Positions 17,102 to 18,046 of a DNA stretch of 64,000 nt are shown in pieces. Numbering within the stretch: the first letter of the stretch is position 1; the number at the start of each line of letters is the position of its first letter. Location: IMG/VR virus record IMGVR_UViG_3300045988_154156. The stretch is one strand, 5' to 3'. This DNA is from a virus. The translations under genes and the position numbers were made by a program. A model generated the notes under the pieces. It was not told where the DNA came from. It did no database searches and saw nothing but the letters and a program-made list of their open reading frames with translations.

Positions 17102-17563
17102 ATGGCTTCTCAAATTAAAAAAAATGATTTAAATAATTGGTATGAGCAATTAAATGCCATTCGAACTGAATTCAATTTAACTACATTAAGTTATTCAAGC
17201 ATTCCTAGTGGAAAGCGTGTTACAAGTACTGATTATACTAATTATTTAGATTTGTTAAATACTTTAAAAACAAATACATATGGACAATATGCTTTAGATT
17301 GGTCTAGTAGTACGACAGAAACTCCTAAAATTAATAATAAAATTAATGAAACTACAAAAAATGATATAGATAATACTATTGCAGCATTACAGAATTTATG
17401 TGCAAGAGAAGTAAGATCTGTAGGCGGACTAAGTAGCGATTTTTCAGTTATTGCAACCGGAAAAACAGAAACTGATTTTACAAATACTACTTTCTTTAAT
17501 CGTACAAATAGTGTTTGTAAAACAAATGGTGTTGCTTCTGATTTTTCTAAATTCACTAATTAA
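17102..17563 (+). CDS. Candidate precursor-like peptide 1 (153 aa). It has a helical N-terminal region and a Ser/Thr/Asn-rich C-terminal core with Cys and repeated xDF motifs.
   Basis: SD AAAGGAGA upstream. The C-terminus reads SSDFSVIATGKTETDFTNTTFFNRTNSVCKTNGVASDFSKFTN. Confidence 0.5.
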   Translation: MASQIKKNDLNNWYEQLNAIRTEFNLTTLSYSSIPSGKRVTSTDYTNYLDLLNTLKTNTYGQYALDWSSSTTETPKINNKINETTKNDIDNTIAALQNLCAREVRSVGGLSSDFSVIATGKTETDFTNTTFFNRTNSVCKTNGVASDFSKFTN

Positions 17564-17575
17564 AGGAGAAATGGT

Positions 17576-18046
17576 ATGAGCGAAAAAAATTTAACAAAAA
17601 TTGTTGATGATGATAAAAAAAATACATATACTTTATCATCATTATTAAATTTATTAAATTCTGGAGATATACTAAAAAAAAGTCGAATTATATCTGATCC
17701 ATCTATTTCTTTAATGGCTAGCAATAGTACTTTTGGTGGTAAAACTTCAAATGGAACAGATCACCCTTTTAGCTCTGTATATAATGTTTCTAAAACAAAT
17801 AACTCTACTAATAGCGTTCATAGCGATTTTACTAGAGACAGTACTGTTTGTCCTGATTTTAATAAATGTAATACTAACTCTACTAACTCTACTTGTGGTG
17901 ATTTTGCTAGATTTACTCAAGATAGTAATACCTGTTCTAGAAGAGATTAGGAAGTAGTAGATGGGCCAGTGTATAATGATAGTAATTATACAAATTCAGT
18001 TACTACAAATACAAATATATTTTTTGGTTTTGCAGTAAGAAAATAA
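17576..18046 (+). CDS. Candidate precursor-like peptide 2 (156 aa, one TAG at 17948). Its core is paralogous to 17102.
   Basis: SD AAAGGAGA upstream. The core reads HSDFTRDSTVCPDFNKCNTNSTNSTCGDFARFTQDSNTCSRRD. The frame continues through the TAG to TAA 18044-18046. Confidence 0.5.

Follow-up and report, generated by a model that had tools for sequence, protein, structure and literature searches.

A split gene of an apparently phage-specific protein family as candidate substrate of two neighbouring radical-SAM enzymes

Two small ORFs of a large phage, P1 and P2 (Table 1), were assigned to an apparently phage-specific protein family not described before, which together with two radical-SAM enzymes encoded downstream, rSAM1 and rSAM2, is best read as a phage-specific RiPP-like protein-modification module of predicted chemistry. 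According to this explanation, to which we give an even chance as a whole, the family would be the dedicated protein substrate of the enzyme pair, encoded here by a gene split in two, and would most likely receive cyclophane cross-links. The sequences themselves show that P1 and P2 belong to this family, that the gene is split, how its position is conserved among related loci, which cofactor motifs the enzymes carry, and how the tails are composed and vary; from these observations we infer that a modification takes place at all, its chemistry and the biological role of the module. No description of such a module was found in the papers searched.

The window, i.e., the whole 64-kb stretch of DNA that was analysed, has a G+C content of 32%, and the same sequence is carried by a 201-kb human-gut contig. 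TAG is probably a sense codon for Gln in this phage, and opening it yielded a coherent gene map of the window. Reading through TAG is justified by the number of in-frame TAG codons in rSAM1 and rSAM2, neither of which contains any other in-frame stop, by an independent gene caller that returned products of 156, 459 and 480 aa for P2, rSAM1 and rSAM2, and by Gln being the commonest homologue residue at four of the eight TAG positions of rSAM1, a check which is partly circular since some database homologues had themselves been translated with TAG as Gln. In-frame TAG codons span positions 466-24262, comprising tail-fibre-like and radical-SAM genes with up to 12 TAG per gene, and hardly any occur in the next 25 kb (26500-51000), a distribution that fits stop-codon recoding limited to late genes. 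Just after the module, six tRNA genes are located at 24334-26471 (Thr-TGT, Leu-TAA, Gly-TCC, Lys-TTT, Ala-TGC and Cys-GCA), none of which carries a CUA anticodon, so that a TAG suppressor must sit elsewhere in the genome.

Both small ORFs proposed in the initial annotation are real, P2 reaching its full length by read-through of a single TAG, and the regulatory signals described around them were confirmed. The terminator upstream of P1 folds with a dG of -18.2 kcal/mol (z = -5.1), and none of 200 shuffled sequences folded equally well; a consensus scan had overlooked it due to its AT-rich stem and a loop of more than 8 nt. The common ribosome-binding site AAAGGAGA precedes P1 and P2, with a third copy at 18046 preceding rSAM1, and the window holds 13 copies in total.

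Table 1 Features of the module and of its surroundings in the window.
Feature	Position	Strand	Description
GT2 glycosyltransferase	14574-15719	+	Upstream of the terminator; in 3/29 loci
QueG/reductive-dehalogenase-like Fe-S protein	15706-16560	+	Among 29 loci, window only
108-aa protein	16689-17015	+	Among 29 loci, window only
Intrinsic terminator	17020..17070	+	After the 108-aa gene; 17-bp perfect stem, 9-nt loop, U8
RBS of P1	17079..17086	+	AAAGGAGA, 15 nt before ATG
P1 ORF	17102-17563	+	153 aa; open in any code, no in-frame stop
N-domain of P1	17102..17416	+	Residues 1-105; predicted three-helix bundle ending at boundary Cys100 (LQNLCARE)
Tail of P1	17417..17563	+	Residues 106-153 + TAA; disordered Ser/Thr/Asn/Phe: SDFSV, TDFTN, TFFNR, SDFSKFTN
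RBS of P2	17562..17569	+	AAAGGAGA, overlaps P1 stop
P2 ORF	17576-18046	+	156 aa with TAG 17948 read through; 124 aa under code 11
N-terminus of P2	17576..17716	+	Residues 1-47; non-repetitive; without counterpart in single-gene orthologues, insertion-like
Low-complexity tail of P2	17717..18013	+	Collinear with C-terminal half of single-gene orthologue tails
Hypervariable patch of P2	17813..17920	+	Residues ~80-115 (Cys/Asp-Phe core); from strain comparison
In-frame TAG of P2	17948..17950	+	Sense codon, probably Gln
C-terminal motif of P2	18014..18046	+	NIFFGFAVRK + TAA; GFAV invariant in L007, L074, L075
rSAM1	18069..19448	+	459 aa, 8 TAG; CX3CX2C + invariant C298, C316, C422; twitch-like
rSAM2	19426..20868	+	480 aa, 8 TAG; CX3CX2C + 7-Cys SPASM
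~190-aa protein	20838..21431	+	No known family; in 7/29 loci
Aldo/keto reductase (AKR)-ferredoxin fusion	21415..22434	+	Aldo/keto reductase fused to 2x[4Fe-4S] ferredoxin; in 9/29 loci
Two paralogous Cys-rich proteins	22498..24262	+	290 + 299 aa; family in 14/29 loci

P1 and P2 had been regarded as paralogues, a view that did not hold, as BLASTP related the two only within low-complexity sequence (E = 0.024). They appear better described as two collinear pieces of one ancestral gene. The profile of the N-terminal domain of the family (N-domain) scored 88 bits for P1, and P2 gave no match to it (E = 1.7). The closest relatives, loci L074, L075 and L007, whose rSAM1 is 54-59% identical, carry one gene of 261-301 aa in which N-domain and tail are followed by a C-terminal GFAV(R/K)x. 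P1 aligned to residues 1-127 of the L075 protein (E = 1e-14) and residues 53-118 of P2 to its residues 174-222 (E = 4e-4), and the four-way alignment of P1/P2 with the three single-gene orthologues was collinear, with F114, F126, F131 and GFAV invariant and the first ~45 residues of P2 appearing as an insertion. The same P1/P2 arrangement was present in five independent assemblies, which excludes an assembly error as the origin of the split. A resemblance of the P2 N-terminus to helix 3 of the N-domain, noticed by eye, was rejected, because its sub-profile score of -3.2 was reached or exceeded by 427 of 1000 shuffles. P1 and P2 share one frame at 17561-17578, separated by the TAA and four codons, and a shared frame has a chance of 1 in 3; read-through of this TAA would yield a single 314-aa protein, like the unsplit orthologues.

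The AF2 model of P1 placed helices at residues 7-23, 42-63 and 83-107 (pLDDT 80-92), followed by a disordered tail. The ordinary N-terminal region of ~60 aa attributed to both proteins has to be replaced by a fold of ~105 aa in P1 and a non-repetitive start of ~47 aa in P2. Searching 1.84 billion representatives with the N-domain profile identified 90 proteins, of which 87 are genuine N-domain representatives at 50% identity after P0138, P0151 and P0216 were left out as spurious repeat proteins. The 57 N-domains searched had no match in Pfam, NCBIfam or PHROGs, and a Foldseek search of the PDB with the modelled N-domain returned nothing with E below 3. Moreover, a word-indexed protein search with P1 found near-identical copies only. 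Neither rSAM1 nor P1 gave matches in IMG/VR when used as a single-sequence query, the IMG/VR scan succeeding only with an alignment of rSAM1 homologues.

In most members the N-domain ends with a boundary Cys, in the context C-A-R-E in P1 and C-[AP]-[NH] in the family, which is absent from one clade (L032, L033 and L034). An alignment of homologues had been suggested initially as a means to find a leader/core boundary and conserved Cys positions; within the core, the Cys residues are not conserved across the family. At L011 the family member bears an additional N-terminal domain of ~200 aa. In three further proteins (P0154, P0163 and P0172), a Hint/intein-type domain (Pfam) follows the aromatic repeats with few residues behind it, which suggests thioester-mediated cleavage or attachment at the tail end.

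The distribution of the module was studied starting from rSAM1, for which 584 homologues were found in a metagenome protein collection. They comprise at least 120 clusters with an identity of 43% or more, and contigs of 100-330 kb carry many of these. None of the cultured phages covered by an INPHARED protein search carries the module, and the INPHARED DNA search returned tRNA matches only and no close relatives. Likewise, 185,579 cellular species genomes contained no close homologue, the best rSAM1 matches being partial and 21-35% identical; one cellular match that was inspected adjoins a SCIFF-like six-Cys peptide, recognised by eye. Protein look-ups together with the IMG/VR scan provided 29 loci for comparison, the window included, which range from 25 to 60% GC with rSAM1 identities of 21-59% and are mostly without recoding. 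rSAM1 and rSAM2 are present in all 29 loci, and an ORF with an N-domain is located directly upstream of rSAM1 in 26 of them. Three loci have no detectable N-domain gene, one of which, L028, has divergent tandem genes like L031. The idea that these small proteins are substrates of the adjacent enzymes is consequently well supported by comparative genomics.

The remaining neighbours, counted over the 29 loci by iterative search, are less constant (Table 1). Several of these neighbours are without assignment: the 108-aa protein upstream and the 190-, 290- and 299-aa proteins downstream had no match in Pfam, NCBIfam or the PDB, and the two Cys-rich proteins of 290 and 299 aa had none in PHROGs either. 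YcaO genes are added in some loci (L007, 1-6600; L022, 3605-5188, and L023, 3150-4955, by eye), and the region upstream of the substrate gene in L007 encodes a radical-SAM/GT2 fusion and two glycine-rich ALK_LTK_GRD proteins.

By their CX3CX2C motif and C-terminal auxiliary-cluster Cys residues, both enzymes belong to the SPASM/twitch radical-SAM superfamily, where they fall among members acting on peptides or proteins. The cluster motif of rSAM1 begins at residue 16. In rSAM2, every one of 28 orthologues retains CX3CX2C and the SPASM Cys (C323, C341, C386, C389, C395, C399 and C418, including CX2CX5CX3C). Between rSAM1 and rSAM2 there is only a distant relationship. The best match of rSAM1 among solved structures was ChlB, narrowly ahead of anSME and CteB and at an identity of only ~13%. 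ChlB, anSME and CteB, which modify peptides or proteins, all belong to the four best structural matches, and the non-peptide enzymes DesII and BlsE were matched as well. All NCBIfam maturase models scored 16-35 bits against cut-offs of 180-650, with PapB at 35 bits (cut-off 340) and SCIFF at 29 bits (cut-off 425); PapB, SCIFF, Clo7bot and the other named maturase models, at 29-35 bits, all stayed below their cut-offs of 340-600. A PqqD/RRE domain was not matched in any module protein, although a divergent RRE could escape such searches, and neither a protease family nor an exporter was detected among the module proteins.

Family tails start after the boundary Cys, comprise 17 to ~360 residues and consist overall of 17% S, 13% N, 12% T, 9.5% G, 8% F and 8% Y, with L, I, M, E and P almost absent. 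Aromatic residues (F, Y, W or H) occur in all 65 tails examined, with a median of 20% and a spacing mode of 3-4, and typical repeats are NFSG, SNFSSNF, RYSxYS, SYDSSYRSSY and GHYGGHYG. The fraction of S+T+N in P1 and P2 is alike in both halves of each protein (0.37-0.43). The recurrence of Asp-Phe motifs noted initially was substantiated, as 'DF' occurs three times in each tail, more often than in shuffled sequences (p = 0.001 for P1 and p = 0.007 for P2), and none of 20,000 shuffles attained the count of both tails together. The description of both proteins as Cys-rich has to be withdrawn, with two Cys in P1 and four in P2, and a recurring Cys-Asp spacing is limited to P2, where C-x-D-F occurs twice, whereas P1 has none.

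The tails are also the variable part of these proteins. Between strains ~98% identical over 3.7 kb, P1 and the ends of P2 are identical, and the differences are concentrated in a patch of ~90 nt in the P2 core, where numerous residues are exchanged and indels of 6 and 9 nt preserve the frame. Of the P2 Cys, C92, C107 and C120 are kept and C98 is replaced by Phe, and D/N and F/Y/H are swapped. The close pairs of other lineages showed the same trend, the tail being more diverged than the N-domain every time, most extremely between L031 and L036 (92% identity in the N-domain vs 33% in the tail). Aromatic tail positions in close pairs stay aromatic in 91% of cases, and other tail positions are 79% identical. 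DGR-type mutagenesis of the P2 patch is unlikely on inspection in view of the 6- and 9-nt indels and of substitutions beyond adenines.

Together, the fixed gene position, the modifier-like enzymes, the N-domain and the fast-evolving tail argue for an enzyme-substrate module of the RiPP type. The architecture of its substrate would be a three-helix N-domain of ~105 aa, a disordered, fast-evolving tail built almost exclusively from Ser, Asn, Thr, Gly, Asp and evenly spaced aromatic residues, with varying Cys content, and, in this clade, the GFAV(R/K) motif. The N-domain may act as a recognition, leader-like element for rSAM1 and rSAM2, which would be translated late in infection, since their eight TAG codons each require the recoded state, and which would cross-link the tail intramolecularly along its length by abstracting hydrogens from its side chains, with the AKR-ferredoxin fusion as putative electron donor for their clusters. 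An aromatic-to-C-beta cyclophane would be the likeliest cross-link, formed on the aromatic-X-X units, which in the window read FSV, FTN, FNR, FSK, FTR, FNK, FAR and FTQ, and Cys thioethers may be added in Cys-carrying members, e.g., P2. The predicted product is a rigid, protease-resistant and strain-variable peptide structure, which could stay on the N-domain, possibly on the virion, or be released at lysis. We count the YcaO genes and C-terminal Hint domains of some relatives, as RiPP-type accessories, in favour of this explanation. Against it count the narrow lead and low identity of the ChlB match, the low scores of the maturase models, the missing RRE/PqqD domain, protease and exporter, and the three loci without a detectable N-domain gene. 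In addition, P2 has no N-domain, so that its recognition would have to occur in trans, via the C-terminal motif, or not at all, and aromatic-rich Ser/Gly/Asn sequence is also found in unmodified low-complexity proteins.

Cyclophane-type links are favoured because aromatic residues are the only universal feature of the tails and because of the match of rSAM1 to ChlB, small as its margin is. By definition, triceptides carry aromatic-to-C-beta links on aromatic-X-X motifs (PMC11499958); MicA, for instance, is cross-linked on YSK, HAS and FTK (PMC12912966), and ChlB is a multiple cyclophane (triceptide) synthase according to work cited there (PMC12912966). The aromatic-X-X core motif of the triceptides made by radical-SAM/SPASM '3-CyFE' enzymes (ChlA/ChlB, XyeA/B, YhhA/B, MicA/B and HtkA/B) is present here as well. 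However, triceptides have a short leader that is removed by a protease, whereas the N-terminal part found here is a folded domain of a new family and no protease was found, some relatives having a C-terminal Hint domain in its place. Furthermore, triceptides depend on one radical-SAM enzyme, and the module described here has two, with tails of up to 360 aa and all members on phage-like contigs; its enzymes remain far below the cut-offs of the NCBIfam triceptide-maturase models.

Several loci raise the question whether the protein is part of the virion. Genes with tail-fibre matches precede the module in the window, L011 and L018, in the latter two by PHROG, and fibre-like neighbours were recognised by sequence inspection in L015, L020/21, L024 and L031/36; as a regular-expression count found tail-fibre motifs upstream of the module in only three of 29 loci, the link is claimed solely for individually checked loci. 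A virion component (tail fibre or tip) with a hypervariable tail cross-linked by the phage's own radical-SAM enzymes, serving host recognition or adhesion, with Hint-thioester attachment or release in some lineages, is an unlikely but conceivable form of the module. We consider it distinctly unlikely that P1 and P2 are unmodified structural or accessory proteins, e.g., associated with tail fibres, next to a radical-SAM pair acting on a sugar, nucleotide or cofactor. Consistent with such proteins, tail-fibre-like genes precede the module both in the window and in a number of relatives, the L011 member is fused to a further domain, the tail ends in a conserved C-terminal motif, and GT2 and AKR genes are located nearby, with DesII and BlsE among the structural matches. 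Nevertheless, the substrate gene keeps its place directly before rSAM1 even where the other neighbours are unrelated, such as YcaO, dUTPase/RuvC-like (by eye) or lysis-like genes. Moreover, P1, P2 and the 57 N-domains had no structural-family match in PHROG or Pfam, the N-domain resembled no solved fold, and ChlB, anSME and CteB rank among the four best structural matches of rSAM1.

The initial annotation had instead proposed that the tails are cores in which SPASM enzymes link Cys sulfur to an acceptor carbon, and had named homologues lacking the Cys residues as grounds for giving this up. As cores of the sactipeptide or ranthipeptide type, in which SPASM enzymes join Cys sulfur to C-alpha, C-beta or C-gamma (e.g., of Asp), the tails make a decidedly improbable case. 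Fifteen of the 65 homologue tails are free of Cys, and L028, L031 and L036 combine such tails with both rSAM1 and rSAM2, so that Cys is not required for the conserved chemistry. In addition, the P1 tail contains a single Cys, C98 of P2 is Phe in sister strains, and the PapB and SCIFF models scored far below their cut-offs. Compared with the known ranthipeptides and sactipeptides (SCIFF/CteB and PapA/PapB), Cys is thus dispensable here, no RRE was found, and the substrate is far longer and repetitive.

The proteusins (with NHLP or Nif11 leaders) are alike in combining a large helical leader-like N-terminus with a hypervariable polar core and radical-SAM enzymes. Here, however, none of the 57 N-domains is related in sequence to NHLP or Nif11 (NCBIfam or Pfam), and the core composition differs. 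Unlike the substrates of anSME, P1 and P2 lack the sulfatase motif C/S-x-P/A-x-R, and no sulfatase gene was seen in the portion of the window that was examined. Modification of the tail without a change in mass or without cross-links, i.e., L-to-D epimerisation as in proteusins and by EpeE or formylglycine-type oxidation at the boundary Cys, is very improbable given the missing NHLP or Nif11 match of the N-domain, a boundary Cys in a context other than the sulfatase motif and missing in L032, L033 and L034, and a regular aromatic spacing which epimerisation leaves unexplained.

If the preferred reading of a cross-linking enzyme-substrate module is correct, large gut and environmental phages own a RiPP-like maturation system consisting of a new substrate family, two radical-SAM enzymes and often a reductase. 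Such a module would add precursor and enzyme sequence space for cross-linked peptides as well as a natural library of strain-variable cores, and it raises the question how a phage benefits from cross-linked, fast-evolving peptides, be it in host recognition, in killing competitors or in counter-defence. If the cross-linked protein is a virion component, it would represent a new class of phage receptor-binding modules, hardened by post-translational modification.

Beyond the module, small cassettes are repeated at 7539-8098 and 10669-11239 and also at 1337, 5953 and 30508, with near-identical N-termini of 70-74 aa (MANKTFQGRIVQKHDT...IKIGDG). These N-termini precede proteins of ~110 aa, and the 70- and 74-aa products have weak Mtd_N matches, which suggests that the repeated cassettes are several alternative tail-fibre modules. 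A major-vault-protein-like gene is located within 28927-33248 (MVP shoulder domain, 70 bits, and a Vault repeat) and the gene preceding it in the same region encodes a DUF2828/DUF7788 protein that matches vWA weakly, a pair unusual for a phage. Furthermore, an NAD+ salvage cluster at 41283-45522 comprises an isochorismatase/nicotinamidase, a phosphoribosyltransferase/PRPP-synthetase-like protein, NAMPT, a macro domain protein and NAD synthase, and an SPFH/flotillin-like protein is encoded at 49132-50520 in the non-recoded part of the window.
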